DNA from: Myxococcota bacterium
GTDB lineage: Bacteria > Myxococcota > XYA12-FULL-58-9 > JALHOP01
Reading direction: 5' to 3'
Length of the DNA: 47,397 nt
Assembly (NCBI GenBank): GCA_022842935.1
Contig: JALHOP010000023.1
Span: forward strand, 1 to 47,397
Each line of letters opens with the position of its first letter. The first letter of the stretch is position 1. This document shows positions 1-47,280 of this stretch, in pieces. Below the pieces are notes generated by a model. That model searched no databases and had not been told where the DNA came from. It saw only the letters and a list, made by a program, of their open reading frames with translations. A program made the translations under genes and the position numbers.

Positions 1-203
1 AACTCAGGTCGGCTTCAACTGGGAGGCGAAAAGCGACGTCGATGGATGCGTGTTGTTGTTGACAGCCGAGCCTCTATTGGCTGTGAAAGATGGCCGTCGC
101 CGGCCTGGTGCAGAGTTGTGCGCTATGCCGGTGTGGCGCGCAACGGGCTAGAACTACGCGAGTGAAGCCGGCGAACTCGCGGCGCATCGCCGCGAGGCCT
201 TGC

Positions 204-224
204 GGCCATCTTGGATTGGGCGCG
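204..224. repeat. 21-bp direct repeat copy 1 (GGCCATCTTGGATTGGGCGCG), just downstream of the 286-aa gene
   Basis: Read directly from the sequence. It matches 1135-1155 at 20 of 21 positions. Confidence 0.8.
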
Positions 225-247
225 CTCAACGCCACTGACATCTGCGT

Positions 248-1108
248 TCACGCTTTCTGCCAAAGCAGATGCAGCTCACCGTTGTCGCCTGGACCGACCG
301 CAAAGAACCAAACCTTCTCGAAGCGATGGTCGCGCCCGTCGAGGAGCGCTTTCGCCCGAGCCTGGCCCGTCCCAAACAGCCCGCTCACTCCCATCTCGTA
401 GATCAACAACCACAGCTTGCCGCCGTACCCGCCATAGTGTTTGTCCAGCTTCACTTTTACGGCGTCGGGCAACGCCGCGTCGACGTCGATACCTGTCATG
501 TTGATGCCGCTACTGAACCGCATTCTGAATGGCACCTCGGGCGCCGCGACCCGCGTTACAGTGGGCCAGAGCTGAATCTTGCTGACATCGTCGGTGATCA
601 ACTCTTCAACGCGGCTGTCGCGAGTTGGCTCTAGCTTCGCAAAGTGTCCAATGTGATCTCGCAGCCACGTCTCGAGCAGCTTGAGCACGGCTTGTCCCTC
701 CTTGCTTTTCAAAGCTGGCAGCACGGCGCAGCTCTCCCACAAGTTCAAGTAAAGGCCAGCGAGGCGATCCGCGACGTCGTCGATCGCGTTGAGGAGTGCG
801 GTTGTGAACAGCTCCCGTTGACGTCTGACGATCATCTCGTGCGCCAGTACAGATTCGACGACTTCGACACCTAGTTTGCTGTCATCGAGTTTCCCCTCGA
901 GGTCTGGCCAATCATTGTGCTGATCTTTCTTCTTCAGCTCTGTGACGATTCCCTTGGCTACAAGAGCCTTTTGAAACTTTGCTACTACCCAGGTTTCAAG
1001 CTCGCCTGGGTCCGTGGGAGGCGTTTCGATGACCGTCGCCACCGAGCCGTCTGCCCCGTAGACGACATAACCAGCCTTCTTGCTCGGCTTCTTCGGTCGC
1101 TTTGTCAC
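248..1108 (-). CDS. Hypothetical protein, 286 aa. Last gene of the integrase-linked cassette. No recognisable motif.
   Basis: Long ORF in the lower-GC island, same strand as and 60 nt downstream of the HTH-fusion gene. Lys-rich N-terminus (MTKRPKKPSKK). Flanked by 21-bp direct repeats. Confidence 0.6.
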   Translation of the reverse strand: MTKRPKKPSKKAGYVVYGADGSVATVIETPPTDPGELETWVVAKFQKALVAKGIVTELKKKDQHNDWPDLEGKLDDSKLGVEVVESVLAHEMIVRRQRELFTTALLNAIDDVADRLAGLYLNLWESCAVLPALKSKEGQAVLKLLETWLRDHIGHFAKLEPTRDSRVEELITDDVSKIQLWPTVTRVAAPEVPFRMRFSSGINMTGIDVDAALPDAVKVKLDKHYGGYGGKLWLLIYEMGVSGLFGTGQARAKALLDGRDHRFEKVWFFAVGPGDNGELHLLWQKA

Positions 1109-1134
1109 TCTACACCTCTCAAACGAGCCCCCGA

Positions 1135-1155
1135 GGCCAGCTTGGATTGGGCGCG
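1135..1155. repeat. 21-bp direct repeat copy 2 (GGCCAGCTTGGATTGGGCGCG), in the intergenic region between the 652-aa and 286-aa genes
   Basis: Read directly from the sequence. It pairs with 204-224. Confidence 0.8.
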
Positions 1156-1168
1156 ATCCGCGGGTCTG

Positions 1169-3127
1169 CTATAGCAATCTGCGCGTGTAGAACGTGGTGA
1201 AGCTATTCGCGATTAGGGTGTGGCGCGAGATGACGCGCATCGTGGACCGCGTACTCTTCTCAATGAGTCGGTAGTTGTCGTGGTCGATGACGATCTCCGA
1301 CTCGAGTTCGTTACGCACCAAGGCCCGGACGAGTCTCGCGCACGAGTCAATGGAACGGACCACGAGGATCCCGTTCAGAACCCCGGTGCTGAGAATCACC
1401 TGCAGCGCCAGGGGATGTTGCTCGCGGAAGAGGTGTGCGCGCTTTTCGAAGTTAACTGCGACCGCAACGAGGATGCCGACCAAGTGAGGGCGTACGTCAG
1501 TAGGAACCGCAGACGGAGCTTCGCCCTTCACCACCTTATCCAACCAGCTGCGATAGTTTGATCGCTCGGACTCCTCAGGAATCCGCGATGCCTCTCCGTA
1601 GAGATCAAAGTCGGCCCAATGCGCCACCGTTGCTTGCGCGAGCGTCGCATCGCTCGCTTTGCTCAAGCGGATAGTCAGCAGACGTGACAGCAGAGCCTGC
1701 TGATCCATGGTCTCGTCCGCCTCCCGATCCTCCTCTGTCCCTTCCTTTGAGATCTGAGTTTGCAGGTCAACGCGGGACAAGAGCCCCAGCGACTCTGTAT
1801 CGACATTCGCGTCCGGGGCGAACAAGCGCGGGACGTAGACGATCACAGGCTTGCCTTGTCCCAACGCCACCGAGGCTTCGGAATCCTTGCCAAAGGTGTC
1901 GGTCTTTTGCGCCATGTACAGTGTCATGGCGGATCGACGAAGCATCAGCGCCTCGACCAAGCCCTTGGCTACTCGATCTTCAATCCACGACTGCGTTGGG
2001 TTGAAGTACCTGAGCTTCAGAGGGCGAACGTCAGAGTGCTCGAATAGCGCGCGGCAGAAGGCGTTGACCGAAACGAAGTCTGCGTCCGAGCGCATTGACG
2101 TGGCCACGTAAACGTCAAGGTGGTCGGCGGCTAGGTAGCGCGCCAGATTGCGCTGTGCAGTTTCCTGCGTATCTGCCATCCGGGTGAGGTCGGACTCCTC
2201 TTTGGGGGCGAGTCGTACCGCTTCGCGTCTTAGCGCATCGGTGTCCTTTGAGAAGAGCGGGGACAAGAAGTCGTGCGGCAGGCTTGAATTGAACTTTCGC
2301 AACAAGCTGGCCATCTTGCGTTTCCGCTTCTCGGTGAACCGCGACAAACCGGTTCCTTTCTCCTTATCTAACGCGTCGGCGACCTCGACCAAGAACGCCG
2401 CAAGCAGACGTCGCTCATCGGATTCCTGCCTCGCCTTCTGCGCAGATATGTAGCCCAAGTCGGGGAGTCGCTCGTCAGCGATGGTTTCGATCCCATCCCA
2501 ATTGCTTCGCGACCGAAACGCCTCATCATCCTTGGATTGAAGGGGTGCCAACATTGCCCGGAGGTCTTCCGCTTGATTGAGCGTGCGGTAGGCGTCCTCA
2601 AAGGTGCTGAATAGGCGGATCACCTCGGCCTGGTACTTTCGCACCTGCTTGTTGAAATCCGCTGGTGACCGAAGAGCGTCTGGTCCGAGATATCTGGCAA
2701 AGAACTCGGACGAACACGGTTCCACGTCGTAGTAGACGAGCACGGAATTGAAGGCGTCGTAAGCCTGGTCCTCAGTGCGGTCGATTCGCGACAGGTTTAG
2801 AACCTCAGCCTTCGCCACGTCTGCGGTCGGCTCGTCGTGGTAGCGTAGGGATACCGGTCGACCAACGAGTTCGCCCAAAGCCTCCTCGAACGCCAGCTGG
2901 GTCTGGTACTCCGCGTCGAGGAAGTCCTTCCAGAACTTCGGCGGAATGCCCAGATACTCGCAGACTGCGGTCAGAACATCTGGCGTTGGGACTCGGCGAC
3001 CCTGCTCGAGATGCGCGACGACCGAACGATTCGTACTGGCCGCTTTCGCGACGGCGTCCTGCGAATCACCGCGTTGCTCGCGAGCCGCCTTTACCTGCTC
3101 GCCTAGATCCTGCAGGTGCACCGCCAT
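1169..3127 (-). CDS. Fusion protein, 652 aa: N-terminal XRE-family helix-turn-helix plus a central Rossmann-like nucleoside 2-deoxyribosyltransferase-like (NDT/SLOG-type) domain and a C-terminal region of unknown function
   Basis: Residues ~10-65 (QDAVAKAASTNRSVVAHLEQGRRVPTPDVLTAVCEYLGIP) are a typical XRE HTH. Residues ~330-440 contain VYVATSMRSDADF ... TDTFGKDSEASVALGQGKPVIVYVP. This resembles the NDT signature D-x-G-x-x-E-x-G-x-A-x-x-x-GK-x-V (Lactobacillus NDT ...ELGYALSQGKYVLLVIP, recalled from memory). Lower GC than the backbone. Confidence 0.6.
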   Translation of the reverse strand: MAVHLQDLGEQVKAAREQRGDSQDAVAKAASTNRSVVAHLEQGRRVPTPDVLTAVCEYLGIPPKFWKDFLDAEYQTQLAFEEALGELVGRPVSLRYHDEPTADVAKAEVLNLSRIDRTEDQAYDAFNSVLVYYDVEPCSSEFFARYLGPDALRSPADFNKQVRKYQAEVIRLFSTFEDAYRTLNQAEDLRAMLAPLQSKDDEAFRSRSNWDGIETIADERLPDLGYISAQKARQESDERRLLAAFLVEVADALDKEKGTGLSRFTEKRKRKMASLLRKFNSSLPHDFLSPLFSKDTDALRREAVRLAPKEESDLTRMADTQETAQRNLARYLAADHLDVYVATSMRSDADFVSVNAFCRALFEHSDVRPLKLRYFNPTQSWIEDRVAKGLVEALMLRRSAMTLYMAQKTDTFGKDSEASVALGQGKPVIVYVPRLFAPDANVDTESLGLLSRVDLQTQISKEGTEEDREADETMDQQALLSRLLTIRLSKASDATLAQATVAHWADFDLYGEASRIPEESERSNYRSWLDKVVKGEAPSAVPTDVRPHLVGILVAVAVNFEKRAHLFREQHPLALQVILSTGVLNGILVVRSIDSCARLVRALVRNELESEIVIDHDNYRLIEKSTRSTMRVISRHTLIANSFTTFYTRRLL

Positions 3128-3256
3128 TGCGTACCTCCGAGTTTGGAGACGCGATCACATCAAAATACACCCGGCCGTCAAGAAGTAGCGCCGCCGTGAT
3201 GAGGACATTGCCAATGCGGCCGCCCGGAGACGGCCGACTAGACTAGTAGCTTGTCG

Positions 3257-3955
3257 TCAGGGCTGCGGGCGCGGCAGTGCGGCGGGACGTTCTGGGCGTG
3301 CGGGACGAGGGTATTCCCCGTTGAGCACCTTGCGAGTTCGTTCGTCGATCAGCCGTTGAATCTCAGCGAGCTCCGCTTTGAACTTCTCGCTACCCAGGTA
3401 GGAAGCATCCGTCACGACGAGCAAACGCTCGTCGAGCGTTGATGCGGCCGCCATAAAGGCGGAAGCGTTGTAAGTGACCGCGTCGTGAAAGGCTTTGACG
3501 GAAGGAATGTACGCTTTGGACAAATCGTAGTTCTGCTGCAACGCGAGCTGGTCGTAGCTGCTTCTAAGGGTCTCAGTGATCGCGCCTGCGTGTAGGTACT
3601 CTTGCGTGAGCGCAATTGTGGCGGCGTCGAGTAGGTCAGTCGCCGTTTCGTCAGCGAGTGCGGTGTAGAGCAGGTTGAAGAACAACCCTTCCGCGGTCAC
3701 CTCACGCACGCTGGTGGAGAGTTCTAGATCTCGAATCTTGGTGGCGCGCTCTAGGTTGTAGTGAACCTCCCATCTCGCAAGCTCTAGTTTCCGAATGGCG
3801 CGTTCACGAGCGTCTCTGGCGGTCTGCTGATGGGTGCGCTCCCAGACGTCTGCGGCTTGGACCTTGCCGGCCGCATAACCAACCGTCAGACCAACCATGG
3901 TGACCAAAAGTTGCACCACGATAGCGGGCCAGTTTTCCGACAGATATTTCCGCAC
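3257..3955 (-). CDS. Membrane-anchored protein, 232 aa: one N-terminal transmembrane helix followed by a helical soluble domain. First gene of the cassette after the integrase.
   Basis: GTG start. Hydrophobic stretch WPAIVVQLLVTMVGLTVGYAAG at residues 9-30. Pro/Arg-rich C-terminal tail. Same strand as the integrase and the HTH fusion. Confidence 0.5.
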   Translation of the reverse strand: MRKYLSENWPAIVVQLLVTMVGLTVGYAAGKVQAADVWERTHQQTARDARERAIRKLELARWEVHYNLERATKIRDLELSTSVREVTAEGLFFNLLYTALADETATDLLDAATIALTQEYLHAGAITETLRSSYDQLALQQNYDLSKAYIPSVKAFHDAVTYNASAFMAAASTLDERLLVVTDASYLGSEKFKAELAEIQRLIDERTRKVLNGEYPRPARPERPAALPRPQP

Positions 3956-3967
3956 GAGGTTGGTCTT

Positions 3968-3981
3968 CTGGGCGCGCGCCC
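3968..3981. promoter_or_regulatory. Perfect 14-bp palindrome TGGGCGCGCGCCCA, 13 nt upstream of the membrane-protein gene start. Candidate operator.
   Basis: Read from the sequence. Its half-site TTGGGCGCG is shared with the 21-bp direct repeats at 204-224 and 1135-1155. Confidence 0.3.
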
Positions 3982-4040
3982 AATGTGTTTTTGTACGACA
4001 CCGTATCTACCACGCCTTCTTGCCCCCCGCCGCTCCGCCA

Positions 4041-5381
4041 TTACTCCCCCCGCACCCGCCGGAATGCAGCGATCACGGCATTTTGCAGCGTTTTGTAGAA
4101 CTCCGGACGCGTGGCGCGGCTCGCAACGTCTGGCGGTAGCGTGGCGCGGGCAGTTGCCCAGGCTTCCTCTGGCGGTAGGTCAATGCGCAACCAGCCGGGC
4201 CGTTCTTCGACTGCCGCGATGCCTTCCAGCCGGACCGTCGCCTCTTTCGTGATGAGGAGGGCGTGCGCGACCCGAGTCGGGCCGTCGCTCGCGCCGAAGA
4301 CGACGCGCAGACGAGCCGTTGGGTTGGCGGTGGGATGCGCGGAAGCCTGTGCTGCTGAGCCCCCAGGGTCGAGCGCGTCGAGTGGACTCTGCGGGTCGGA
4401 GCGAGTCGTCGTGATGTGTGTGTAGAGACGCGTCGTCTCGAGATTGGCGTGGCCGAGAAAGTCTTGGATGAGACGGAGGTCCGTACCGCCTTCCAGCAAA
4501 TGCGTTGCGAATGAGTGGCGTAGCGAATGGCACGTGACGTTCGCGCGTAGGCCAGCGAGCTCGGCGGCGCGCCGGAACATGCGTTGAGCGGTGCGCGGCG
4601 ACAGGTGGCGGCGGTCGTTGGCGCTCGAGGGGAAAAGGAAACTCTCCGGGGTGGCGGCGGTGCGCAGAGCCAGCAGCCAGCGCTTCCACTTCGTTGGCAT
4701 CAGCGCGCGGCGGTCTTTTGCGCCCTTGCCTCTGAAAACCCGAATGCTGCCCGACTCGAAGTCGAGATCGCGCCAGCGGACGCGGCACATCTCGCCGACG
4801 CGCATGCCGGTCGCGTACAACAGCCCCAGCAGCAGCTTGTCGCGCCGCGCCGGCGCCGCAGCAAGCAAGCGCAGGATCTCGTCGCGGCTCATCACCGTCG
4901 GTAACGACCGCGCGCGTCGCGGTGTGACGAGACCGGTTGTCGCTGTGAGACAGCACATCTTGTCGAACACGGTGCGGAGCATCGAGAGGTTACTTGCGAC
5001 CCATGATGCGCTCGCGCCAGCATCCACGAGGAACTCGAGATACTCGCGCACCAGCTCGCGGTTTGTCTCGGAGGCCGGTGCTTGCGACCAGCGCAGGAAC
5101 TGCATCAGCGCACCCAGGTACGTCTTCACGGAGCGCCGGCTGTAGAAGCGGATGCGCAGCTCGCGCCGGATCTTGCGCACGAACATGCTCGACGAAACAT
5201 TTGCCCGCGTCAGGTCCACGACCGCATGCGATGGGCCGAGCGCGTCATCGAATGGTCGGCGCGGTCCGAACCGGCCGCGCGCGATCCGGTAGACACGACC
5301 ATCGTTATAGGTGTGCGAGTCGATGCGGCGGCCCACGCGACGCTCGAGTGCCAACCCCGTGCCAACGGATGACCAGGCCAA
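4041..5381 (-). mobile_element. Tyrosine site-specific recombinase (phage-integrase / XerD-like family), 446 aa, with N- and C-terminal extensions
   Basis: Catalytic region HSLRHSFATHLLEGGTDLRLIQDFLGHANLETTRLYTHI with the R...HxxR...Y signature. Core-binding-like N-domain (RRSVKTYLGALMQFLRW). About 65 extra residues after the catalytic Tyr. Confidence 0.9.
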
Positions 5382-5891
5382 GAGGCGTTGGCGGGTCTCG
5401 ACAGCTGTCTACTGGCGTGCGTGTAGCAACATGAGACACGAATCTAGCGCGGGACTGCTCGCTCAGGGCTTGTTCGGCGGCAGCGGCTTGAGCTTATCGA
5501 GCTCGGTGGCCATTTCCTCGAGCGCCGCCGCGCGACCGCTTGCGAGCGCGTCGACACCGTCTTCGCGAGCGAGGTTGCGACCGGCCCAGTGAGAGGACCT
5601 CGGCGGCCCGTGACTGACAAAGCGCTTCCATCAACGCAAGCGTCTGACACTGGACAGGGCCTTGTGTTTCCTATGCACCGACACGCTCGTCGAAATCGAC
5701 CGCGAAGCGCTGGCGTCGATCCTCGGATGTCAAAGGCGCTCCCGCCTTCCGCGTCCAGGGACGGGAAGGCCTGTTCGCCGGTTTGCACGAGGGGTGTCGC
5801 GGGCGGCCGAGCACGACAGCTGGGTGACGTTGAAGAAGCGGGACTGAGCCGGTCACCAAAGACCACGTCGATCAGTCCCGCGCTTCAGTTT

Positions 5892-8765
5892 CTATTCAGC
5901 TGCGCTCGCCCACCCGAATGGTAGACATGTATAGGTCACCTCTTGACCAGGCTTCGCGGCGATCGCGCGGATCTCCGCGTCATCGAGCACCGAGCCGCCA
6001 TCGTCGGGCTCGAAGAAGCCATCGGGCTGCAGCTTGTAGGTGCGCGCGCGACCTTCGGTGACGAAGCGTGCGACGAGGTCGCACTCGCGCGCTCCGGCGC
6101 CCAGCACCTTCGATACGAACGGCGTCTTGGCACGCGCGACCAGCAAGTCGATGCGTGGCCCAACGCTCGCGGCGTTGTCAGCGCGCAGGGTGACCTGCTG
6201 ACCAACGACCGGTGCCAAGTCAGTGTCGAAAGCGAGCAAGTATTGCTCGACGTCACGTCGCTGGGGGTCGCCGCCGGTGAAGCCCACCCGGCCGTCGTAC
6301 GTCGGGTTGAAGACGACCTGCTGCAAGAACCGAAACAGCGTATCGGTACTGCCGTCGAAGGCGTATCCGGTACCGCGGACCTGGGCGCCCTGATAGCCGT
6401 TGTCGCCGAGGTTGATGTGGTCGACGGCCGGCGAGCCGAACATGCCAACCTTGTGGACCATGTTCCGCAATTGCGGAATCTTGAAGGTCTGCGGTAGCGC
6501 TTCGAAGCTCGATTGACCGTCGGTCCCGAAGAAGCCCTTCGCAGGGTCGAGGGTGTGGCAACCCTGGCAGGTGAAGCCAAACCCGGCGATGGGTAGACCG
6601 TCGGAGAAATGGCCAAGCCCGGTCGCGATGGGCTCGTTGGGCGAGCAGCGCGCAACGTTTCCAGAGACGCTCGGGGTGCCGGCGCATCCCAGATAAAACT
6701 GGCGGCCACGCTCCTGACTTGCGTTCAAGCCATTGTCCAGCGCGCGCACCGGGTTCGGTGGCATGACGACCGAAAGCGTGAACGCCGTGAATGCTTGCAT
6801 CGCCTCGCGCGGCAGAGGCTCGGCGCGCCCAAGCAAGTCCTGAAAGGCGCCGATGAAGTTGTTGAACGACAGCTCGGCGTCATACGGGGGCGCCTTGCTC
6901 GTGTCCGTGCCGAAAGCGCCCGAAACCCGGTCGCCACGCCAGTGCATGGGACCGTGATTTACTAGACCGCGCAGCGTTTGCGTGGTCAGCGGCCCCTTCA
7001 TGGGATGCAGGGCGTCCACTTCGCCGGTCCCGTTGATGGTGGGTTCTGCGCCGAGCCCGAGGCGCACGGGCACGGGGCTTATCACCACCTCCCCGTCTGG
7101 ATTGCCGAGGTCCCAAGCCAGGTGGTCGTCATCGGCGAATATATGGCAGCTCGCGCACGCAGCTTCGCCGTTCGAAGACAGGCGCCCGTCGTAGAGCGCT
7201 GGTCGGCCGGTGGTCACCACACCCGGCTCAGGGTTTGCGAGGGTGCGATGGCCGCTTTCTTTTGCCGTTGCGAGGTCGATCACGGAGACGCCGTTGTCGA
7301 AGCGCGTCGCGACATACAGGCGTTGTCGTCCGCTATCAAGGACAACACCCGATGGGCCGCCGCCCGAGACGTCCAGGTAGCCGGCACTCGCAACGCGTGG
7401 ATCGAAGCTGTCGTTCTCGAGCGCTGCAGTCGATAGCACTCCGACTTTTGCCGAGCCGAATCCCGCGACGTAGAGCGTCGCGCCATCGGGGCTGACCACG
7501 ACCTCGAGGGGCGTCGACAAGCTGTGGCTGGCAGTGTCCGTGGGCGCCGGCAGGACGTCGTAGGCGATGTGCTTGTTGAGGTGACGCGGGCGCACGCTCG
7601 CCCCGTCGACGACGGTGATGCGCGATTCGGCGAGGTGACCTTGCAGGGTGGTGGCCGCGTACGTGCCCGGCCCTTCGAAGCGCAGGTCGTTGCGCGCCTC
7701 GGTGTTCGAGACATACACCACGCCGGTTACGGGGTTCACGGCGACGTTGAAGAGTGTCGTGCCAAGGCCCGCGTATGTCGCGACCGTCGCGAGATTGCCG
7801 GTGTCGATCGCGAAGAGGTCTTGGTCGGGGAGGTCGAAGGTCGCGGCCGCGGTCCAGTCGCGTCCCAACACGTCCCGCCAGACGCCATCGTTGCCGGTCT
7901 TGAGGATGACCGCGACTGGAGGTGCGGGAACGCCGTCGTGACTGGTCGCAGGGCCGGGCGGAGCACCAGGGACCTCGATGCCCAGCTTGACGCATGTCGA
8001 GGTCACTCCTGGGCCATCGAAACCGGCGCACGGTAGTGTCGGGGGCGTCACCGTGGTGCGGTTCCCCGACTTGAAGACGGCCACGTAGACCCGAGCACCG
8101 TCTGGCGAGACCGCGAGACCACGTGGGGAATCGCCGAAAAACGAAAGGATGCGCAGCGGTGTGCCGCCGAGCGTGTCGCCGAGGTTGTCGCCATCGAAGA
8201 CCCAGACGTCGGCACGCCCGATGCCTGGTGTCGTCAATAGCGGATCGCCGGCGCCGGGCACGTTTGCGATCGACGGGTCGGAGCGATGCTGGCCGCGATG
8301 CGCCGTGCTGATGAATGCGCGCCGACCCTCGGGGCCAGCGAACACAATGTCTTGTGGCTCGTCGCCCACCAGCAAGGTTCGCACCACACGTGGCGGGCTT
8401 GTCGTCGTGTCCACCACGCTGACGCTATCGGAGAGGTGATTGACCACCCACACTTCGCCGTTGGCGCGCGCTGCGACAGCCACGGGCTCGAGGCCGACGT
8501 GCGTCGAGCTCACGAGCGTTAAGCCGTCAGCACTCACGTCGAGCACGTCGAGCGTGGCGTTGGGTGTGTTCGCGACGAAGAGTCGGCTACCGTCAGCGGA
8601 CAGGGCGAGAGGGCGGACAGGGCCGCTTTCGAAGGTAAAGGTGGGTGTAAGTGTGCTCGACGTCGGTGTCACCACTGGCAAGTCGACCGGGTCCTTGTCG
8701 TCCGAACAGGCGCTGGAACAACAAACGAGTGCAATGAGCAGCGGTGTGGTCGTGGATATTTTCAT
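5892..8765 (-). CDS. Secreted lipoprotein: YVTN-type beta-propeller fused to a di-haem cytochrome c peroxidase / MauG-like domain
   Basis: Start at the internal Met (MKISTTTPLLIALVCCSSACS, lipoprotein-like signal). Two CXXCH haem-binding motifs (ACASCH and CQGCH) in the C-terminal half. Repeated LYVA/VSVID propeller blades in the N-terminal half. Confidence 0.7.
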   Translation of the reverse strand: MKISTTTPLLIALVCCSSACSDDKDPVDLPVVTPTSSTLTPTFTFESGPVRPLALSADGSRLFVANTPNATLDVLDVSADGLTLVSSTHVGLEPVAVAARANGEVWVVNHLSDSVSVVDTTTSPPRVVRTLLVGDEPQDIVFAGPEGRRAFISTAHRGQHRSDPSIANVPGAGDPLLTTPGIGRADVWVFDGDNLGDTLGGTPLRILSFFGDSPRGLAVSPDGARVYVAVFKSGNRTTVTPPTLPCAGFDGPGVTSTCVKLGIEVPGAPPGPATSHDGVPAPPVAVILKTGNDGVWRDVLGRDWTAAATFDLPDQDLFAIDTGNLATVATYAGLGTTLFNVAVNPVTGVVYVSNTEARNDLRFEGPGTYAATTLQGHLAESRITVVDGASVRPRHLNKHIAYDVLPAPTDTASHSLSTPLEVVVSPDGATLYVAGFGSAKVGVLSTAALENDSFDPRVASAGYLDVSGGGPSGVVLDSGRQRLYVATRFDNGVSVIDLATAKESGHRTLANPEPGVVTTGRPALYDGRLSSNGEAACASCHIFADDDHLAWDLGNPDGEVVISPVPVRLGLGAEPTINGTGEVDALHPMKGPLTTQTLRGLVNHGPMHWRGDRVSGAFGTDTSKAPPYDAELSFNNFIGAFQDLLGRAEPLPREAMQAFTAFTLSVVMPPNPVRALDNGLNASQERGRQFYLGCAGTPSVSGNVARCSPNEPIATGLGHFSDGLPIAGFGFTCQGCHTLDPAKGFFGTDGQSSFEALPQTFKIPQLRNMVHKVGMFGSPAVDHINLGDNGYQGAQVRGTGYAFDGSTDTLFRFLQQVVFNPTYDGRVGFTGGDPQRRDVEQYLLAFDTDLAPVVGQQVTLRADNAASVGPRIDLLVARAKTPFVSKVLGAGARECDLVARFVTEGRARTYKLQPDGFFEPDDGGSVLDDAEIRAIAAKPGQEVTYTCLPFGWASAAE

Positions 8766-10663: not shown

Positions 10664-11377
10664 CTATCGGGTCAACCCATCCGCGGAGCCACGCGGAATC
10701 GAGCTGCCCTCCATCGTCGTGATGTCGGGGCACAAGTCGCGGTCCAAGACCCGGGCGCAATGCCGCGCGAGGTGCTCTTCCACCTCGGCGAGGGCGACCT
10801 TGCGGTCGAGCAGCGCCTCGAGTGAGGTCACACCGCGCCCATGGATGCCGCACGGGACGATGGTCTCGAAATGCGCGAGGTTCGTGCCGACGTTGAGGGC
10901 GAAGCCGTGCATCGTCGTCCAGCGCGCAACGCGTACCCCGATGGCCGCAACCTTGTCGTTGCCCACCCATACTCCGCGCAGACCCTCGACGCGGGTGGCG
11001 TCAACGCCGTAGTCCGCGCACGTCGCGATGAGCGCCTCTTCGAGGTTCCAGATGAAGCGGCGGATGTCCTTCTCGCCGTCACGGAGCTTCACGATAGGGT
11101 AGCCCACGACTTGGCCGGGCCCGTGATACGTCACGTCGCCGCCGCGCGATGATCGATGCAGCTCGATGCCCATCGCCGCGAGCTCCTGCGGCGTGCGCCT
11201 CAGATTGTCGAAGCCGTCGAGCCCGCTGTTCTTGCCGAGCGTGACCACGGGGTCGTGCTCGAGCAAGAACAACGTGTCAGGCTCGGTGTCCGCTAGAACA
11301 GCCGCATGCCGAGCTTCCTGCAGGGCCAGCATCGGCGCGTAACCGATGCGACCCATCCGGACGGCGTGCAGCTTCAC
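10664..11377 (-). CDS. lipB: Octanoyltransferase (lipoyl(octanoyl) transferase)
   Basis: Typical LipB N-terminus and RGGDVTYHGPGQ.VGYP motif. Directly downstream of the E2 gene. Confidence 0.85.
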   Translation of the reverse strand: MKLHAVRMGRIGYAPMLALQEARHAAVLADTEPDTLFLLEHDPVVTLGKNSGLDGFDNLRRTPQELAAMGIELHRSSRGGDVTYHGPGQVVGYPIVKLRDGEKDIRRFIWNLEEALIATCADYGVDATRVEGLRGVWVGNDKVAAIGVRVARWTTMHGFALNVGTNLAHFETIVPCGIHGRGVTSLEALLDRKVALAEVEEHLARHCARVLDRDLCPDITTMEGSSIPRGSADGLTR

Positions 11378-11381
11378 CGGC

Positions 11382-12863
11382 TCAGAGCTCCGATTCGTCG
11401 AACTCTTCGATGTTCTTCTTCACCTTGGCCATGAAGTTGTCGGCCACGGCGCCGTCGATGAGACGGTGATCGAAGCTGAGCGACAAATAGGCGCGGGTGC
11501 GAATTGCGATCGCGTCGTTGATGACGACCGGACGCTTCTCGATGTTGGCGACGCCCATGATGGCGACTTGCGGCTGATTGATGATCGGCAAACTGATCAT
11601 CGGACCGATCTGGCCAGGGTTCGTCACGGTGAACGTACCACCGCTGATCTCGTCGGGCATCAGCTTGCGGTTACGCGCCCGCGTCGCAAGATCGACGCTG
11701 CGCCGAGCAAGACCTAGCAGATTGAGCTCGTCGGCGGAGTGGATGACCGGCACGATAAGGCCCCAGTCGAGAGCCACTGCGATGCCGAGGTTGATGCTGC
11801 GGTGATAGATGACGTTGGTGCCATCGAGACTCGCGTTGAGCACCGGGAAGCCCTTGAGAGCATCGACCACGGCCTTCAGCACGAAGCCGTTGTAGGTCAG
11901 GTTGACGCCATGACGCTCTTCCCACAACGCTTTGTGCTTGGCGCGCAGCTGCGCGACCTTGGTGAAGTCGATGTCCCAGACCGTGTTCACATGAGCGGAC
12001 ACGCGGCGTGACACCACCATGTGCTCGGCGATTTTGGCGCGCATGTTCGAGAGCGGCTCGACGCGGTCACCCTCGAAGACGCGTCCACGATAAGCGTCCG
12101 GCACGGGTGCACGCACGTCATAGACATTGCCGCCGCCAGCCGATGGGGCACCTTGCGCCGGTAGCAGTTGCGACTGCGGCGCGCCCTTCGTCGCGACGCC
12201 CGCTGAGGTGCTAGCGGCGCGCTGCGCTTGTGGCGCCTGCTGCTGCGGCCCGCGCTCCATGTAGCCCATGATGTCGTCTTTGGTGACGCGGCCCGACATC
12301 CCAGAGCCCTCGATCTGCGTGATGTCGATGTCGTTCTCGGCGGCGATCTTGCGCACTAGCGGCGAGCTCTTGGTCTTGCGGCGCTCCTCGTCGCTGACGC
12401 CGTTGGTGGCGTGCACGGCCTTCGGTGGCTCAGCCTTCGGAGCCTCGGCCTTCGGCGGTCGGGTATCTGCCTTCGGCGGCTCGGCTTTCGGTTGTTCGAC
12501 CTTCGGGGCAGCGGCCTTCGGAGCCTCGGCCTTCGGTGCCTCCGCTTTAGCGGCGCCGGCGCCCTTCTCTCCCGCCTCGCCGATCACGGCGACGACGCTA
12601 TTGACCGCGACGGTCGCCCCGTTCTGCGCCTTGATCTCGAGCAGCACGCCCGCCGCTGGTGACGGGATCTCGGCGTCGACTTTGTCGGTCGAAATCTCGA
12701 ACAACGGCTCGTCGCGGTTGACGGTATCGCCAACCTTCTTGAGCCAGTTGGTGATGGTTCCTTCGGCGATAGATTCGCCCATCTGAGGCATGATGACGTC
12801 GGTTGCCACGGTCAGATCTCCCTGGTGGTTCAGCGCGCGCGTCCTACCAGGGATCGCGCCCAA
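11382..12863 (-). CDS. 2-oxo acid dehydrogenase E2 component (dihydrolipoyllysine-residue acyltransferase), single lipoyl domain
   Basis: Lipoyl domain IMPQMGESIAEGTI...EISTDKVDAEIPSPAAGVL. Ala/Pro/Lys linker. Catalytic DHRLIDGA motif near the C-terminus. Confidence 0.85.
   Translation of the reverse strand: MGAIPGRTRALNHQGDLTVATDVIMPQMGESIAEGTITNWLKKVGDTVNRDEPLFEISTDKVDAEIPSPAAGVLLEIKAQNGATVAVNSVVAVIGEAGEKGAGAAKAEAPKAEAPKAAAPKVEQPKAEPPKADTRPPKAEAPKAEPPKAVHATNGVSDEERRKTKSSPLVRKIAAENDIDITQIEGSGMSGRVTKDDIMGYMERGPQQQAPQAQRAASTSAGVATKGAPQSQLLPAQGAPSAGGGNVYDVRAPVPDAYRGRVFEGDRVEPLSNMRAKIAEHMVVSRRVSAHVNTVWDIDFTKVAQLRAKHKALWEERHGVNLTYNGFVLKAVVDALKGFPVLNASLDGTNVIYHRSINLGIAVALDWGLIVPVIHSADELNLLGLARRSVDLATRARNRKLMPDEISGGTFTVTNPGQIGPMISLPIINQPQVAIMGVANIEKRPVVINDAIAIRTRAYLSLSFDHRLIDGAVADNFMAKVKKNIEEFDESEL
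12416..12548. repeat. Imperfect ~15-bp tandem repeats (GCCTTCGGNGNCTCN) encoding the AEAPK-type flexible linker of E2
   Basis: Repeated gccttcgg cores visible in the sequence. They translate to KAEAPKAEAPKAAAPK... Confidence 0.6.
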
Positions 12864-12922
12864 ACGACAATCCGGGGGAGGCCCTGGCAGGAATTTTGAC
12901 GGAATGATCCACCGCCCTCAGA

Positions 12923-13477
12923 GTGCGGCGCATGCGCAACAACATCGGCATCGACCTGAACTTCTCGTGCCTCTACCCCTATCCGGCCCAGCGGAAGGAC
13001 CGCCGTCTGCGCGACCGTGCGGAGCCGTCGACGGACTTCACCTGGGAGATGGACGCCCCTTGGAACGAGCAGCTCAAGAGAAGCGCGGCCACCTCGCCGA
13101 TGGCGCGCCGCGAGATCGAATTCGTCTATGAGCTCGAACGAAAGCTTCAGCAATGGGAACAGGCACAGAAGGACCGCCGCAAGCTTCTGCGCGCTCCGGT
13201 CATGACGCGCGTCCACATCGACGGCCAGGAACACATGTTGGCTTGCGATGTCTCGACGCGTGGCCTGCGTTGTTCGGGTCGGCCCAAGAAGGCGACTCTC
13301 GATGTCGAGTTCAAGATACCTGGCCTACCGTTCCCAATCGACGCCAAAGCCGAGGTCATTGAGTACTTCGACCGTCCGGTGATTCCGCTCGTCAACATGC
13401 GATTCATCGACCTGGACACCCCATACGAGAGCCACATCCAGGACTATGTGAACCGCAGACTTGCCCACACGTTGTAG
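12923..13477 (+). CDS. PilZ domain protein (c-di-GMP binding)
   Basis: RxxxR (RRLRDR) and D-x-S-x-x-G (DVSTRG) PilZ signature motifs. Confidence 0.5.
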   Translation: MRRMRNNIGIDLNFSCLYPYPAQRKDRRLRDRAEPSTDFTWEMDAPWNEQLKRSAATSPMARREIEFVYELERKLQQWEQAQKDRRKLLRAPVMTRVHIDGQEHMLACDVSTRGLRCSGRPKKATLDVEFKIPGLPFPIDAKAEVIEYFDRPVIPLVNMRFIDLDTPYESHIQDYVNRRLAHTL

Positions 13478-13905
13478 CGGCCGCAGTCTCGGTGGGATGA
13501 CGTTCGTAAACCGCGCAGCAAACCACCTGCGTGCTCTCCTCGTGGGGGTGCGTCGCGTCGCGGTGGTCGGCTGCTCGCCTAAGCCTTATCGGCAGAGTCA
13601 CCAGGTCGCCGCCACGATGCAGCGGCGAGGTTTCACCATCGTGCCGGTCCATCCGGCCGGCGGGGTGATCCTGGGCGAAACCGCTTTCGCGGACATTTCA
13701 CAGATGCCGGACGACTACTGCATCGACATGGTCAACGTTTTTCGACGGCCCGAGGCTACCGCCTGACTAGTCGCCGAGGCCAAGCGTCTCGGCGCGCGCG
13801 GTCTGGCTTCAACATGGCATCGAGAGCAGCGCGTGCGCGGACGCCGCCCGCGAGCACGGCATCATGTGTGTCATGAACTGTTGCTACTGCACCAGCCGCA
13901 GGTGA
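13461..13905 (+). pseudogene. CoA-binding (YccU-like) protein gene disrupted by an in-frame TGA (13764-13766) and a +1 frameshift about 40 nt later
   Basis: Frame 0 gives VAVVGCSPKPYRQSHQ...VNVFRRPEATA-stop-LVAEAKRLGARG. The +1 frame continues with VWLQHGIESSACADAAREHGIMCVMNCCYCT, which matches the conserved C-terminal half of CoA-binding proteins (WLQ.G...A...G..VV..C). Confidence 0.5.
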
Positions 13906-14381
13906 CCGCGAACCCCCGGTGTCTTGGCGATGTGCTTGAGCTCCGAGACGTCCTCGACGATGCGCTTGATGTAAGCCATCGCGGAGCTGCCCTCGTCATG
14001 GATCTGCTCGGCGACCAAGGGGCGCTTGTCGACGTAGCGATGCACCGCCAACATCGCTTCCGGGGCGAGCCTCAGAAAGCGTAGCGACAAGCCGATGCCG
14101 CGGGGAACCTCCACGAGGTCGACGACGCGGCAGGTGCAGCGGATGGCCTGGGTGTCGCCTGGGAGAGTGAAACGAACTGCGATGATCTGACCTGGCCAGC
14201 GCGGCCGCGTGGTTGTGACCAACATGCCACCCAGGCTGACGTCGTGCGCTACCATCCAGGTGCCGTCGCCCGTGCACTCGACCTTGATGGCAATGTCGGC
14301 GCGCGGCAGTTGGCGGCGCTCGCCGCCCTCGTCTTGCGTTCTCATGCGCTCATTGTGCGAGGACCTTTCGCAAAACCGCAA
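13884..14381 (-). CDS. PilZ domain protein
   Basis: RQLPR (RxxxR) and DVSLGG (DxSxGG) motifs. Confidence 0.5.
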   Translation of the reverse strand: MRFCERSSHNERMRTQDEGGERRQLPRADIAIKVECTGDGTWMVAHDVSLGGMLVTTTRPRWPGQIIAVRFTLPGDTQAIRCTCRVVDLVEVPRGIGLSLRFLRLAPEAMLAVHRYVDKRPLVAEQIHDEGSSAMAYIKRIVEDVSELKHIAKTPGVRGHLRLVQ

Positions 14382-14811
14382 AATTTCGTCCGCTTGATCG
14401 GCAGCAGGCCCGGTGCGATGCCTTAAGCGTGGTGTCTAAGGGAGCGCTCCAGTGGCAGCCAGAGACGCGCGTCGGCCCCACAACCGACGTGTTTGGCGCT
14501 GGCTGTTCCAAACATGGTTTCGAAGCGTCTCGAACGATACCCCACACGGGGCTGTACGCTTCGGCGTACGCCTCGCTCGAGCCTGAAAAGCTTGCTCAAA
14601 GGAAAACGGAAGCGACGTCTCATGGCCGAGCGGAATTGGCTCTGGCCTTGCGCCGGGACGCCTCTGGGCGGCGATGGCCTGCCTCGCCATGCTCCGAACC
14701 GGCCCGCGCGCGGGCAAGGCGGAGCAGCGGGGCTCGTCCGGCCGCCCACGCGACCCAGCCCGCCACTGTCCATGGCAGAGCCGTGAGACGTCCTTCTATC
14801 GAGGTGATGTG

Positions 14812-15903
14812 ATGTTCAAGTCGGTACTTGTCCGCGAAAACGAACGAGGCATCGAGCGCGTCGACGGAAGGGTGCGCGCCATCTTGCAACCGGGTCGCTA
14901 CACGACCTTCGGCAAGCGTACCGTCGAAGTGGTTTCGACCAAACCGACCTTCTTCGTGCATGACGACCTCGAGATGATCGCCAAGTCGGGGCTGCTGCGT
15001 GAGGAAGCCAAGGTGATCGACCTCAAGGTGCATCAACGCGCCTTACTCTGGGTGGACGGTCGCTTTCACGCGGCGCTCGTGCCCGGCCTCTGGGTGGTCT
15101 GGGCCATCAAGCGCGAGGTCAAAGTCGACATCTACGAGGCGGCGACGCTCGCGTTTTCGCACCCCGAGCTCTCGACCATCCTCGAGATGCCGAGCGGGCA
15201 GAACGCCCTCATGTCGGTCGTCGTGAACAACGGAGAAGTCGGCGTTCTGAAGAAGAACGGCGCCATCGCTGAGATCCTAGAGCCCGGTCGCTACGCCTTC
15301 TGGAAAAACGTCGCCAAGCTCGAGGTGCAGGTCGTCGACACGCGTGAGATCGTCCTCGACATCGCCGGGCAGGAGATCATGACCGCCGACAAGGTGACCC
15401 TGCGCATGAACGCCATCGTCACCTACCGCGTCGCCGACGTGAGAAAGAGCCTGAGCGAAGCGCAAGACTTCAAGCAGGCCATCTATCGCGACTCGCAGCT
15501 CGCTTTGCGGGCCATCGTCGGTACGCGCGAGCTCGACACGTTGCTTGCGGCAAAAGAAGAGGTGGCAGCGGAGCTCATGGGTAGCATGGCGCCGCGCGCG
15601 CTCGAGCTTGGTGTGCGCATCGTCAGCGTTGGTGTCCGCGATGTCGTTCTCCCGGGCGATATGCGCGAGCTGCTCAACAAGGTCACCGAAGCGCGCAAAG
15701 CCGCCGAGGCCTCGTTGATCACCCGGCGTGAAGAGACCGCCGCGATGCGCAGCCACGCCAACACCGCCAAGCTCTTCGAGAACAACCCCATGCTCATGCG
15801 CCTGCGTGAAATCGAGGCACTCGAGAAGATCGCTGACAAAGCGAAGTTGAACGTCGTGCTTGGCGAAAAGGGTCTGGCTGAACGAATCGTCAATATGCTG
15901 TGA
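14812..15903 (+). CDS. SPFH/band-7 (slipin-like) domain protein
   Basis: Start at the internal ATG with GAGGTG 6 nt upstream. Band-7 core (TADKVTLRMNAIVTYRV...AIYRDSQLALRAIVGTRELDTLL). C-terminal coiled-coil with ARKAAEA. Confidence 0.7.
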   Translation: MFKSVLVRENERGIERVDGRVRAILQPGRYTTFGKRTVEVVSTKPTFFVHDDLEMIAKSGLLREEAKVIDLKVHQRALLWVDGRFHAALVPGLWVVWAIKREVKVDIYEAATLAFSHPELSTILEMPSGQNALMSVVVNNGEVGVLKKNGAIAEILEPGRYAFWKNVAKLEVQVVDTREIVLDIAGQEIMTADKVTLRMNAIVTYRVADVRKSLSEAQDFKQAIYRDSQLALRAIVGTRELDTLLAAKEEVAAELMGSMAPRALELGVRIVSVGVRDVVLPGDMRELLNKVTEARKAAEASLITRREETAAMRSHANTAKLFENNPMLMRLREIEALEKIADKAKLNVVLGEKGLAERIVNML

Positions 15904-15945
15904 GCAACCGCGCGGGGCCGCGAAGGGTAGCCGCCGCTCGCGACC

Positions 15946-29616: not shown

Positions 29617-30477
29617 TCAACGCAGATACTTGTGCACGAGTGGGCCAAGCTCGGCGACGCGCGTTTTCGGGATCGAGGCGCGGTCCGTAACGATGGCGAC
29701 CGCGAGCGCGCTTGCACAGGCGCAGCGCACGTCGAGGCCAGCTATGGTTGGGAGGGCCCTCTCGAGTAGCTTCTGAGCGCGCGCGCTGTTTGCCTTGAGA
29801 ATGGCGATGACCGCGTCGACGGTCACGGGCTCGGCGCTCACGTGCCAACAGTCGTAGTCGGTGACCAGCCCCAAGGTCACATAGTGGAGCTCGGCTTCGC
29901 GGGCGAGCTTCGCCTCAGGCATCGCCGTCATGCCAATGATGTCGAAGCCCATGGCGCGGTAGGCGAACGACTCTGCGCGCGTCGAAAACTGTGGACCATC
30001 GATAGTGACGAGTGTTCCGCCATCGTGGACGTTCAAGCCCAGCGCGCGGGCCTGTGCCACGAAGTGTTTTGCCGCCGTGACGCAGACAGGGTCCGCCATG
30101 CTGACGTGCGCGACCACGCCTTCACCGAAGAACGTGCGGTCCCTGCCTTGTGTGCGGTCGATGTACTGGTCGGGTACCACGAGGTCGCCTGGGTGAATGT
30201 GCTCTTTCAATGATCCGACCGCTGAAACGGACACAAGCCACTCGACCCCGAGCGACTTCATGGCGAAGACGTTAGCGCGGTAAGGCACCTCGGCGGGGGT
30301 CAAGCGATGACCACGTCCGTGGCGCGGCAAGAAGACCAGCTGCGTGTCACCGAGTCGGCCGGTGACCAGGGTGTCGGAAGGAGGCCCATAGGGCGTCACG
30401 ACGTTGACCTCTTGCACGTCGGTGAGCCCTTCCAAGGCGTAGAGCCCGCTCCCGCCGATGATTCCGATGGTGGTCAT
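29617..30477 (-). CDS. mtnP: S-methyl-5'-thioadenosine phosphorylase (PNP/MTAP family)
   Basis: MTTIGIIGGSGLY...VTPYG...RHGRGH...VSAVGSL...LVVPDQYIDRT hallmark MTAP motifs. Confidence 0.8.
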   Translation of the reverse strand: MTTIGIIGGSGLYALEGLTDVQEVNVVTPYGPPSDTLVTGRLGDTQLVFLPRHGRGHRLTPAEVPYRANVFAMKSLGVEWLVSVSAVGSLKEHIHPGDLVVPDQYIDRTQGRDRTFFGEGVVAHVSMADPVCVTAAKHFVAQARALGLNVHDGGTLVTIDGPQFSTRAESFAYRAMGFDIIGMTAMPEAKLAREAELHYVTLGLVTDYDCWHVSAEPVTVDAVIAILKANSARAQKLLERALPTIAGLDVRCACASALAVAIVTDRASIPKTRVAELGPLVHKYLR

Positions 30478-30526
30478 GAAGCCTCTCTTGCTTCAGAGCG
30501 TCCCAAGGGTAAAGCTCAAGCGCGCG

Positions 30527-30862
30527 ATGCACGACCACTACTACGACTCCAAAGACCTCGGCCGCTTCCCCGAAATCGGCAAGGCGGCCCCCGACCTCGC
30601 CAAGAAGTTCTTCGATTGGTACGGCGCTGTCTTCGCAGACGGCGCGCTCAGTGCAAGAGAGAAGTCACTCATCGCGCTCGCGGTGGCGCACACGGTGCAG
30701 TGCCCCTATTGCATCGACGCGTATTCGAACGACTGTCTCGCGAAGGGCTCGGACATCGAGCAGATGACCGAGGCCATCCACGTAGCCGCCGCTATTCGGG
30801 GCGGCTCGTCACTCGTCCACGGCACGCAGATGCGCGCTCACGTCAAAAAGGTTGGGATGTAA
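30527..30862 (+). CDS. AhpD-like (carboxymuconolactone decarboxylase family) peroxidase-like protein. Matches the arsenosugar-biosynthesis-associated peroxidase-like family.
   Basis: CPYCIDAY motif in an ~110-aa AhpD-core-sized protein. It ends directly at the start of a radical-SAM ArsS-like gene. Confidence 0.5.
   Translation: MHDHYYDSKDLGRFPEIGKAAPDLAKKFFDWYGAVFADGALSAREKSLIALAVAHTVQCPYCIDAYSNDCLAKGSDIEQMTEAIHVAAAIRGGSSLVHGTQMRAHVKKVGM

Positions 30863-45485: not shown

Positions 45486-45489
<4 letters not shown>
44860..45489 (+). CDS. Histidine phosphatase superfamily protein (SixA-like). The true start may be the internal Met at 45058.
   Basis: YILVRHCEKA (RHG-type catalytic motif variant). 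Size and layout of the SixA branch. ATGA overlap with yqeY. Confidence 0.5.
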
Positions 45490-47279
<1,790 letters not shown>

Positions 47280-47280
47280 A

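Follow-up and report, generated by a model that had tools for sequence, protein, structure and literature searches.

A 21-bp Repeat Pair in a Myxococcota Contig Points to an Integron-Like Array With Fused Cassettes Beside a Tyrosine Recombinase That Lacks the IntI Insertion

In the 47,397-nucleotide (nt) contig JALHOP010000023.1 of a Myxococcota bacterium (assembly GCA_022842935.1), the whole of which was analysed and is here called the window, 2 copies of a 21-base pair (bp) sequence bracket the gene for a protein of 286 amino acids (aa). The window very probably starts inside the integrase-proximal end of an integron-like cassette array on the minus strand, in which the cassettes have become fused. 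Judged from its sequence, the 21-mer represents one arm of an attC recombination site of the integron type, made up of R'', the spacer and L''. The 2 copies are not equivalent, one being the start of a full 152-nt element and the other probably a truncated remnant of about 34 nt. The proposed order is recombinase gene (5381..4041), attI-like site CACA↓TTGGGCGC (arrows mark the crossover), 3 cargo genes, attC-like site (224..73) and contig end (table 1). What takes the case beyond the routine is the recombinase, which is a relative of the integron integrase IntI without the hallmark domain of IntI and is consistently linked to attC arrays.

Repeat Pair and Gene Context

Searched for in the window, the pattern GGCCANCTTGGATTGGGCGCG gave 2 exact plus-strand matches (204-224 and 1135-1155) and none more at 3 mismatches; none of 100 dinucleotide-preserving shuffles of the window contained a match (chance expectation 0). 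The copies were identical at 20 of 21 positions, the single difference being T versus G at 209/1140, and the ungapped similarity between them reached 35 nt at 83% (193-227 vs. 1124-1158). The positions and the identity that the initial annotation, made from the letters of the contig, had given for repeats bracketing the 286-aa gene were thereby confirmed. Its placement of the pair within an island was borne out by the GC content, which was 58% to 59% over positions 1-4000 as against 60% to 67% (mostly 62% to 67%) across the remaining window. No tRNA genes were found in the window, so that the region is not a tRNA-targeted island.

All genes in the repeat region were located on the minus strand, where the recombinase gene was followed by an open reading frame (ORF) of 232 aa, a 652-aa gene for a protein with a helix-turn-helix (HTH) domain, the repeat copy 1155..1135, the 286-aa ORF and the repeat copy 224..204. 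Each copy is thus found after a stop codon on the coding strand. The copy 224..204 begins 23 nt past the stop codon (248-250) of the 286-aa ORF (1108..248), and the copy 1155..1135 is situated inside the 60-nt spacer that runs from the stop of the 652-aa gene (1169) to the GTG start (1108) of the 286-aa gene.

Architecture and Fold of the attC-Like Element

The downstream copy, unlike the upstream one, runs on for a further 131 nt as a conserved element (224..73). A covariance model (R1), for which 11 full elements had been used, recovered this element as its sole full match in the window (149.5 bits, E = 7e-35), and nhmmer recovered it with an E-value of 3.8e-46. In gene sense, the consensus of this element reads CGCGCCCAAT-CC-AAGATGGCCG ... 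CGGCCATCTT-TCAC-ATTGGGCGC. The consensus folds into an outer stem of 8 bp (CGCCCAAT/ATTGGGCG), corresponding to the R box, and an inner stem of 10 bp (AAGATGGCCG/CGGCCATCTT), corresponding to the L box, which are separated by an asymmetric internal loop of CC versus TCAC (2 vs. 4 nt) and topped by a branched tip that holds a small hairpin. The polarity was canonical, with an RYYYAA-type R'' beside the ORF stop and a TTRRRY-type R' at the distal end.

The fold was consistent with the substitutions observed among the 33 strong copies that the covariance model identified in loci of metagenome-assembled genomes (MAGs). Across these 33 elements, 93.6% of the cells were paired, compared with 27% to 52% when the partners were slid, and double changes were found at 8 pairs, a number equalled in just 2 of 500 shuffles. 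Compensatory substitutions were also present in the tip hairpin, for example CTCGCG/CGCGAG, GTCGCG/CGCGAC and CTCGAC/GTCGAG. Folded as single-stranded DNA, one MAG copy gave z-scores of -6 to -7 on either strand. The consensus element thus has the architecture of an integron attC site, with an R box, an unpaired spacer, an L box, a variable tip and a predicted single-stranded fold.

By analogy with integrons, one strand of the element would fold on itself in vivo, with R'' pairing with R' and L'' with L', so as to present 2 recombinase-binding duplexes separated by a bulge. The recombinase would then exchange strands at A↓TT in R'. Recombination between 2 attC sites would excise a cassette as a circle, and recombination between attI and attC would insert a cassette beside the recombinase gene.

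Arrays of the Element in Related Genomes

Among 185,579 species-representative genomes, the 21-mer was found 11 times in the MAG CAZAER01, labelled as an uncultured Bdellovibrionales, and a MAG from Myxococcota contained it once; the few other matches, in unrelated genomes, look like chance or coding matches. All 12 of the 21-mers in the related MAGs opened a conserved element with sharp boundaries and a length of about 150 nt; 10 of these elements were full-length and 2 ended early. The 33 copies identified with the covariance model, to which the window adds one, were co-oriented within every locus and located 0.4 to 1.7 kb apart. In 14 of the 31 gaps between elements, a single sense-strand ORF started no more than 30 nt from one element and ended no more than 30 nt from the next. 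Partial copies in these arrays broke at differing positions, as expected from sporadic deletions. The initial annotation had named dispersal of the 21-mer as a common REP-like repeat, unconnected with this locus, as an observation that would speak against its proposal; the 21-mer was indeed frequent in a related MAG, but always in co-oriented cassette arrays.

In integrons, the crossover takes place inside R', whereby the outer half of R' is part of the cassette that follows and is complementary to the R'' of the next attC site. Since the outer R-box positions vary naturally among the MAG elements (CGCGCC, GCCGCC, GTCGCC, GTCGGC, GACGCC, CGCGTC), the location of the cassette boundary could be examined in the related arrays, the window having one full site. 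For the distal R', the next element's R'' was a better match than that of its own element in 13 cases and a worse one in 5, with 9 ties. When only intact neighbors were considered (hand-filtered output), the numbers were 9 versus 1, with several matches of 10/10. The match of the distal R' to the next R'' places the exchange point between CACA and TTGG. Such a match to the next neighbor is the signature of an integron-type crossover, and it argues strongly against a self-contained repeat of the miniature inverted-repeat transposable element (MITE) or repetitive extragenic palindrome (REP) type.

An element of that type, or one similar to a bacterial interspersed mosaic element (BIME), would be a non-autonomous palindromic mobile or repetitive sequence that spreads by itself into intergenic DNA and lies near the recombinase gene incidentally, the upstream 21-mer being a broken copy of it. 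It would account for the terminal inverted repeats of 9 to 10 nt (CGCGCCCAAT/ATTGGGCGCG), the length of about 150 nt, the many copies per genome and the strong hairpin. However, no target-site duplications were found beside the elements, the orientation is uniform at each locus, with copies alternating with single compact co-oriented ORFs, and the covariation of the outer R' half with the next element is unlike a self-contained transposing unit. Furthermore, a half-site adjoins the recombinase gene in 2 genomes, homologous recombinases in distant lineages have their own versions of the array, and no further full copy is present elsewhere in the 47-kb window. We consider this explanation very unlikely.

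The repeats could also be regulatory or RNA modules, either operators for the adjacent HTH protein or stem-loops and terminators in 3' untranslated regions, and both operator sites and terminator or promoter modules had been suggested in the initial annotation. In favor of such a role, both copies lie directly past a stop codon on the coding strand, the protein encoded next door has an XRE-type HTH domain and the full element is highly structured. Against it, the fold of the 60-nt spacer with the upstream copy did not rise above background for either strand (z +1.0 and +0.5), neither a T-tail nor a T-run was present at the repeats, the terminator scan called neither copy, and the search of Rfam over positions 1-4100 returned nothing relevant. 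It was also noted that the more than 30 copies in the related arrays were not accompanied by any homolog of the HTH protein in the stretches of 5 to 8 kb that were read, and conservation follows the pattern of a DNA recombination site. The operator and terminator suggestions were accordingly not supported, and a regulatory role is in our view extremely improbable. No sigma-70-like promoter was found in positions 1-5600.

With the integron-type reading, the idea of a cassette-type or att-like exchange point put forward in the initial annotation turned out to be right in kind, the 21-mer being read as an attC arm. Its further suggestion that an insertion had duplicated a target or att site was not upheld, because the downstream copy is part of a conserved 152-nt element with which the upstream copy shares about 34 nt, and the copies are therefore not equivalent.

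The neighborhoods of the arrays could also be compared in part. Positions 29623-31890 of the window were 80.5% identical over 2.3 kb to positions 3778-6044 of the locus read from the Myxococcota MAG contig JBDHVB010000078.1 (L010). The distance from the array to these shared genes is about 1 kb in JBDHVB010000078.1 and about 25 kb in the window, and the location of the array thus varies between relatives.

The Recombinase and Its Family

The recombinase gene, which precedes the cassettes and is co-oriented with them, encodes a tyrosine recombinase in which the catalytic motifs R, K, HxxR, H and Y were visible in the alignment. Its best match by sequence in the PDB was 2a3v, the IntI4 or VchIntIA integrase of the Vibrio cholerae integron, and 2a3v was also the top match of its predicted fold in a Foldseek search. 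The protein nevertheless scored below the NCBIfam cutoffs for integron integrases, with 189 versus 265 bits for TIGR02249 and 136 versus 435 bits for NF011946. Its core was Xer-like in length and aligned without gaps to archaeal XerA-type recombinases, XerC and XerD.

About 1000 relatives of 430 to 490 aa were identified in public data (1019 at E <= 1e-20 among 8000 candidates scored). They originated from Planctomycetes and from Deltaproteobacteria MAGs, and those that had been named were called XerD or site-specific integrase. The 49 family members that were aligned had in common the lack of the IntI insertion, an N-terminal extension TYNDGQPYRPARGRYAPR and a conserved C-terminal domain of about 90 aa. 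In the window recombinase, the C-terminal domain (residues 345-446; window 4044-4349 on the minus strand) was predicted to contain 4 strands and 3 helices, with predicted local distance difference test values of 83 to 93. No Pfam model was available for this domain, and among 1.8 billion representatives it was found only at the C-termini of the recombinase family or in short fragments.

We fetched the loci of 9 homologs (here called L004 and L014-L021). Co-oriented repeat arrays were located downstream of the recombinase gene in 6 of these loci, representing 5 lineages (L004, L014, L016, L017, L018 and L021), with repeats of about 130 to 300 nt, those in L014 being at least 300 nt. The R''/L''...L'/R' arms could be read in the repeats of L004, L014, L016, L017 and L018, and the repeat array alone was detected in L021. 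In L019 and L020, the contig broke less than 300 nt from the recombinase gene, as expected beside a repeat array, and no downstream array was present in L015. Arrays were thus headed by homologs in 5 of the 6 other lineages with readable downstream DNA.

Contigs with members of the recombinase family tended to end just downstream of the gene, at distances of 264 nt to 5.7 kb in L018 to L021 and likewise in the window, which fits with repeat arrays breaking short-read assemblies. In L015, which comes from a 12.7-Mb genome, the homolog was followed within positions 11735-16094 by a second tyrosine recombinase, an IS91-like Y2 transposase and the reverse transcriptase of a group II intron.

The attI-Like Site and Cassette Exchange

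The R' consensus was matched exactly at a single place in the window, by the sequence CACATTGGGCGC (3987..3976), which is located 54 nt past the recombinase stop. The distal half of this box (TTGGGCGCG) shows complementarity to CGCGCCCAA, the R'' sequence that both 21-mers have, which is what the cassette rule leads one to expect. A box with the sequence GACATTGGGCGCT occupied the equivalent place after the homologous recombinase in L004, and the first cassettes after the shared box differed between L004 and the window, the 2 recombinases being only about 46% identical. In L004, the box was followed by a cassette encoding a ParE toxin and then by a full element. This first cassette (310-840, minus strand) contained the ParE gene (PF05016, 9.9e-15) and an upstream partner ORF of 74 aa, and is a toxin-antitoxin cassette of the kind common in chromosomal integrons.

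A more direct comparison was offered by L016 and L017, 2 assemblies that contain the same 430-aa recombinase. The 2 loci were about 99.5% identical over the 395 nt compared, up to ...GTACTG↓TT, past which the cassettes differed, with TTGGCAG... in one and TTAGGTG... in the other. As read from these sequences, the point of divergence would correspond to the canonical G↓TTRRRY insertion point, and it provides what looks like direct evidence of cassette exchange beside a member of the family.

Two further features were observed next to the attI-like sites. In the window, the perfect 14-nt palindrome TGGGCGCGCGCCCA (3969-3982) abuts the box and is followed by a T-run on the plus strand, and the scan called it terminator-like. 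In L016 and L017, the segment between the recombinase stop and the attI crossover (11327-11410) contains 6 direct repeats of 13 to 14 nt (TTTTCAGTTGCGRC / TTTTCTCTGCGAC), which are candidate accessory binding sites.

The Orphan Arm and the Composite Cassette

The upstream copy of the 21-mer was aligned by nhmmer to model positions 1-34 only, with an E-value of 3.5e-4, and was not detected by the covariance model. This orphan arm retained R'', the spacer and L'' together with the initial bases of the tip hairpin, and was directly followed by the ribosome-binding site and the GTG start of the 286-aa gene. Its substituted position (A to C at 1140; column 17) was conserved in 29 of 31 related elements. 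In the simplest reading of the sequence, the orphan arm would be the remnant of an attC site that once ended the 652-aa cassette, and the loss of that site would have fused the 286-aa cassette to the upstream one. A deletion may thus have removed the upstream attC site beyond its first 34 nt or so, leaving the 286-aa gene in a 3-gene composite from which it could not be excised alone.

The upstream copy also bears on the possibility that the 21-mers are duplex core sites in the style of Xer/dif or Cre/lox, between which a Xer-like recombinase would excise the 286-aa gene by recombination of direct repeats. The copies are direct repeats that bracket one gene, and half-sites of the R type and the L type are present in each 21-mer (GCGCCCA ... 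TGGCCGC, forming an inverted repeat with 6/7 matches around 8 nt). The duplex 21-mer offers R and L boxes with sequences identical to those of the folded site. Moreover, the recombinase that aligns without gaps to Xer proteins has no insertion of the type by which IntI reads a folded attC site. However, the A/C difference at 1140 affects precisely the conserved L'' position, which suggests decay rather than maintenance, and both arms of the element are conserved together and covary as a hairpin over the 33 elements, for which a duplex core has no need. It is also the whole 150-nt element that is always the unit of repetition in the related arrays, by the boundary signature the crossover is located not in the 21-mer but in R', at the opposite end of the element, and the other partial array copies break at differing positions, as expected for random deletions. 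Excision through duplex cores is therefore unlikely.

A weak similarity was seen near the orphan arm. At 1041..1028 on the minus strand, inside the 5' end of the 286-aa ORF and at roughly the attC spacing from the orphan arm, there was a 13/14 match to the L' arm. With an E-value of 9.5 this match is too weak to use, and it may be either a decayed whole attC site overprinted by the start of the ORF or a chance match.

If the orphan arm is the stub of a lost attC site, the stretch 3983..82 looks like what is now a single composite cassette of 3 genes and 3.9 kb, and the 286-aa gene is probably no longer independently mobile. Neither the 286-aa protein nor the 232-aa protein had a match in Pfam, NCBIfam or PADLOC. 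The 286-aa protein was the sole member of its family among 5.8 billion proteins, an ORFan status that is typical of cassette cargo. Look-ups with the exact sequences of the 286-aa and 652-aa products returned no record. A tblastn search with the 3 cargo proteins against all fetched loci gave no match.

Table 1. Coordinates of the features in the cassette region of the window.
Feature	Position	Strand	Description
Full attC-like element, 152 nt	73..224	minus	3' of the 286-aa gene; L' box CGGCCATCTT at 96..87, spacer TCAC at 86..83, first R' base A at 82
Composite cassette, 3.9 kb, 3 genes	82..3983	minus	From the attI-like crossover to the sole full attC site; GC 58-59%; putative, deduced from its parts
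Repeat copy 1	204..224	minus	R'' box CGCGCCCAAT at 224..215, 2-nt spacer CC, L'' box AAGATGGCC(G) at 212..203; aligns to element consensus positions 1-21 and pairs with 87-96 in the consensus and in DNA folds
286-aa ORFan, cassette cargo	248..1108	minus	Gene bracketed by the repeats; from the ORF listing
Orphan 5' arm, including repeat copy 2 (1135-1155)	1122..1155	minus	Model positions 1-34 only; A to C at 1140 in the L'' box
652-aa protein, cassette cargo	1169..3127	minus	N-terminal XRE-type HTH domain (PF13560/PF01381 at residues 7-65); no assignment elsewhere in the protein
232-aa protein, cassette cargo	3257..3955	minus	First gene past the attI-like box; from the ORF listing
attI-like box CACA↓TTGGGCGC	3976..3987	minus	54 nt past the recombinase stop; putative crossover between 3984 and 3983
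Tyrosine recombinase, 446 aa	4041..5381	minus	PF00589, 5e-42; upstream of the cassettes and co-oriented with them

Evidence Against an Integron-Like Array

Several observations weigh against the interpretation of the region as an integron-like array, and they concern the sites, the window and the enzyme. With respect to the sites, the triplets in nearly all of the 33 copies were AAT (R'') and ATT (R') and not the canonical AAC/GTT. In the homologous arrays, the R' triplet was ATT in L016 and L017 and GTT in L014 and L018. The distal half of R' in the window element (81..73) was aberrant, reading GCCAATAGA in place of TTGGGCGCN. At this place, after TCAC-A, all 25 of the best-scoring related elements (above about 120 bits) read TT, mostly followed by GGGCG. 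Because of the aberrant half, the R-box stem of the window element cannot form, and it was not formed in the DNA fold of 224..73, which had a z-score of -3.4. The full site moreover ends 72 nt from the contig end, where misassembly is plausible.

The 16 nt beyond the aberrant R' resembled the sequence that follows one of the MAG elements, and AGCCAAT is the reverse complement of ATTGGCT. The aberrant sequence could conceivably have arisen by a flip of the 7-nt R' box, and misassembly close to the end of the contig is just as possible. Should the aberrant R' be real, the terminal site would be crippled for want of its outer R' half, and the composite cassette may be frozen too.

In the window itself, only a single full site, a single stub and a single composite cassette were present, and the evidence for arrays is taken from other genomes. 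Furthermore, the 232-aa and 652-aa genes are separated by a 129-nt spacer (3128-3256) in which no attC site was recognizable. Both this spacer and the one at 1109-1168 were searched for a second attC site with the covariance model, nhmmer, DNA folding and a home-made grammar of R and L boxes, and nothing above background was found in either, the grammar being unspecific. No recombination product, such as a site without a cassette, a circle or a cassette shared by 2 places, was observed for this type of attC site, and the only direct evidence of a cassette swap came from a homolog that is 45% identical to the window recombinase.

With respect to the enzyme, residues 170-231 of VchIntIA, which cover the region of the IntI-specific insertion near patch III, on which the intI_Cterm profile of IntegronFinder is based, corresponded to just 22 residues in the window recombinase. 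The region was likewise shortened in the homolog P0029 and in all 49 aligned members of the family. The additional domain of IntI is held to be defining and necessary for an integron integrase (PMC4889954, PMC8352920, PMC9668308), and it is regarded as a requirement for attC recombination (PMC8352920 and PMC9668308, each with reference to Messier and Roy 2001). The real enzyme could be a canonical IntI protein encoded elsewhere in the genome.

These points notwithstanding, we hold that the array interpretation is very probably correct. Whether the insertion-less family, with its private C-terminal domain of about 90 aa and its N-terminal extension, is the cognate enzyme of large co-oriented attC arrays, and hence of a distinct class of integrons, we put at even odds. 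On that view, which is equally balanced between true and false, the class would comprise the roughly 1000 public matches in Planctomycetota, Myxococcota/'Deltaproteobacteria' and their relatives, and the folded attC site would be recognized by a different structural solution. There is, to the same half measure, a prospect that current tools, which require the IntI insertion, would score such integrons as 'integrase-less' attC-site clusters without an integron integrase (CALIN). In the literature searched, we found no description of an insertion-less integron integrase, of an "atypical integron" of this kind or of a family of such recombinases heading arrays, which is not proof of novelty.

Other Repeats in the Window

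Two other repeats were noted in the window. At the far contig end, a tandem 14-nt unit GACCGAGAGCCGAT was present in 8.4 near-perfect copies (47279-47395), starting from the stop of a 597-aa ORF (45486..47279, plus strand). An imperfect repeat with a 15-nt period, CGGCCTTCGGTGCCT, was found in about 8 copies at 12416-12542 within the ORF 11382..12863 on the minus strand, and is probably a low-complexity coding repeat.

Comparison With Known Systems

The proposed array resembles the sedentary chromosomal integrons whose attC sites are long and homogeneous, of which the superintegron of Vibrio cholerae with its Vibrio cholerae repeats of about 120 nt is an example. As in that system, the cassettes are tandem, co-oriented and promoterless, mostly with a single ORF and mostly of unknown function, toxin-antitoxin cassettes included, and each is followed by a long imperfect palindrome with the order R''/L''...L'/R', an unpaired spacer and a variable tip. 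Further similarities are that the attC sites within one array are highly similar, that the crossover lies inside R' so that the outer half travels with the next cassette, and that an attI-like half-site is located by the recombinase gene. The differences are that the recombinase described here is without the IntI insertion and has an extra C-terminal domain, that its gene is co-oriented with the cassettes rather than divergent, that the triplets are AAT/ATT versus AAC/GTT, that the bulge has 2 nt facing 4 nt, and that a Pc-like promoter was not found.

In the orientation of the integrase gene with the array, and in the position of the attI-like site past the 3' end of that gene, the region is instead similar to the 'inverted-integrase' integrons of Treponema and others (Cury et al. 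2016, PMC4889954; Ghaly et al. 2021, PMC8352920). Such integrons are found in non-proteobacterial phyla, including Planctomycetes (PMC4889954, PMC8352920). However, the published examples were identified through the IntI additional domain and retain it, whereas the family described here is without that domain and falls below the NCBIfam cutoffs.

A CALIN is defined by IntegronFinder as attC sites without a protein positive for IntI_Cterm nearby, and the related arrays would probably be classified in this way. In contrast to a CALIN, a conserved tyrosine recombinase that is catalytically intact by its motifs and an attI-like site adjoin the arrays, which are therefore probably not 'integrase-less'. 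The window, with one full attC site and a stub, falls short of the at least 2 attC sites that make up a CALIN; the related MAG loci would qualify.

Fused cassettes are familiar from the class 1 resistance integrons, where the intervening attC site has been lost or truncated and a stub is left, the pair forming a single mobile unit. The junction in the window is similar in that 2 cassettes appear to be joined by truncation of an attC site with a stub left behind. The fusion proposed here is deduced from the arrangement of the letters, and the stub keeps the proximal arm (R''-L'').

Finally, the recombinase shares with the Xer/dif and pdif systems a core that is Xer-like in length and that can be aligned without gaps to XerA, XerC and XerD. 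Unlike the 28-bp duplex sites of the dif type, however, the sites described here are structured palindromes of 150 nt in arrays, and there are no paired XerC/XerD-type half-sites in alternating orientation.

Implications

The repeat pair led to an exact map of a putative attI site, a probable fused 3-gene cassette, an attC stub and a damaged terminal attC site, and the map shows how cassettes lose their independence. In integron biology it is assumed that the IntI insertion enables the use of folded, single-stranded attC sites, and here a conserved recombinase family without the insertion is found at the head of bona fide attC arrays from several phyla. Should a canonical IntI be acting in trans, the role of the array-linked recombinase would still need to be explained. 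If the family is the active enzyme, the definition used by detection tools would miss a class of integrons, and part of the puzzling excess of CALIN would be explained. The family would then also represent a second structural solution to the recombination of hairpin sites, with relevance for the engineering of structure-specific recombinases.

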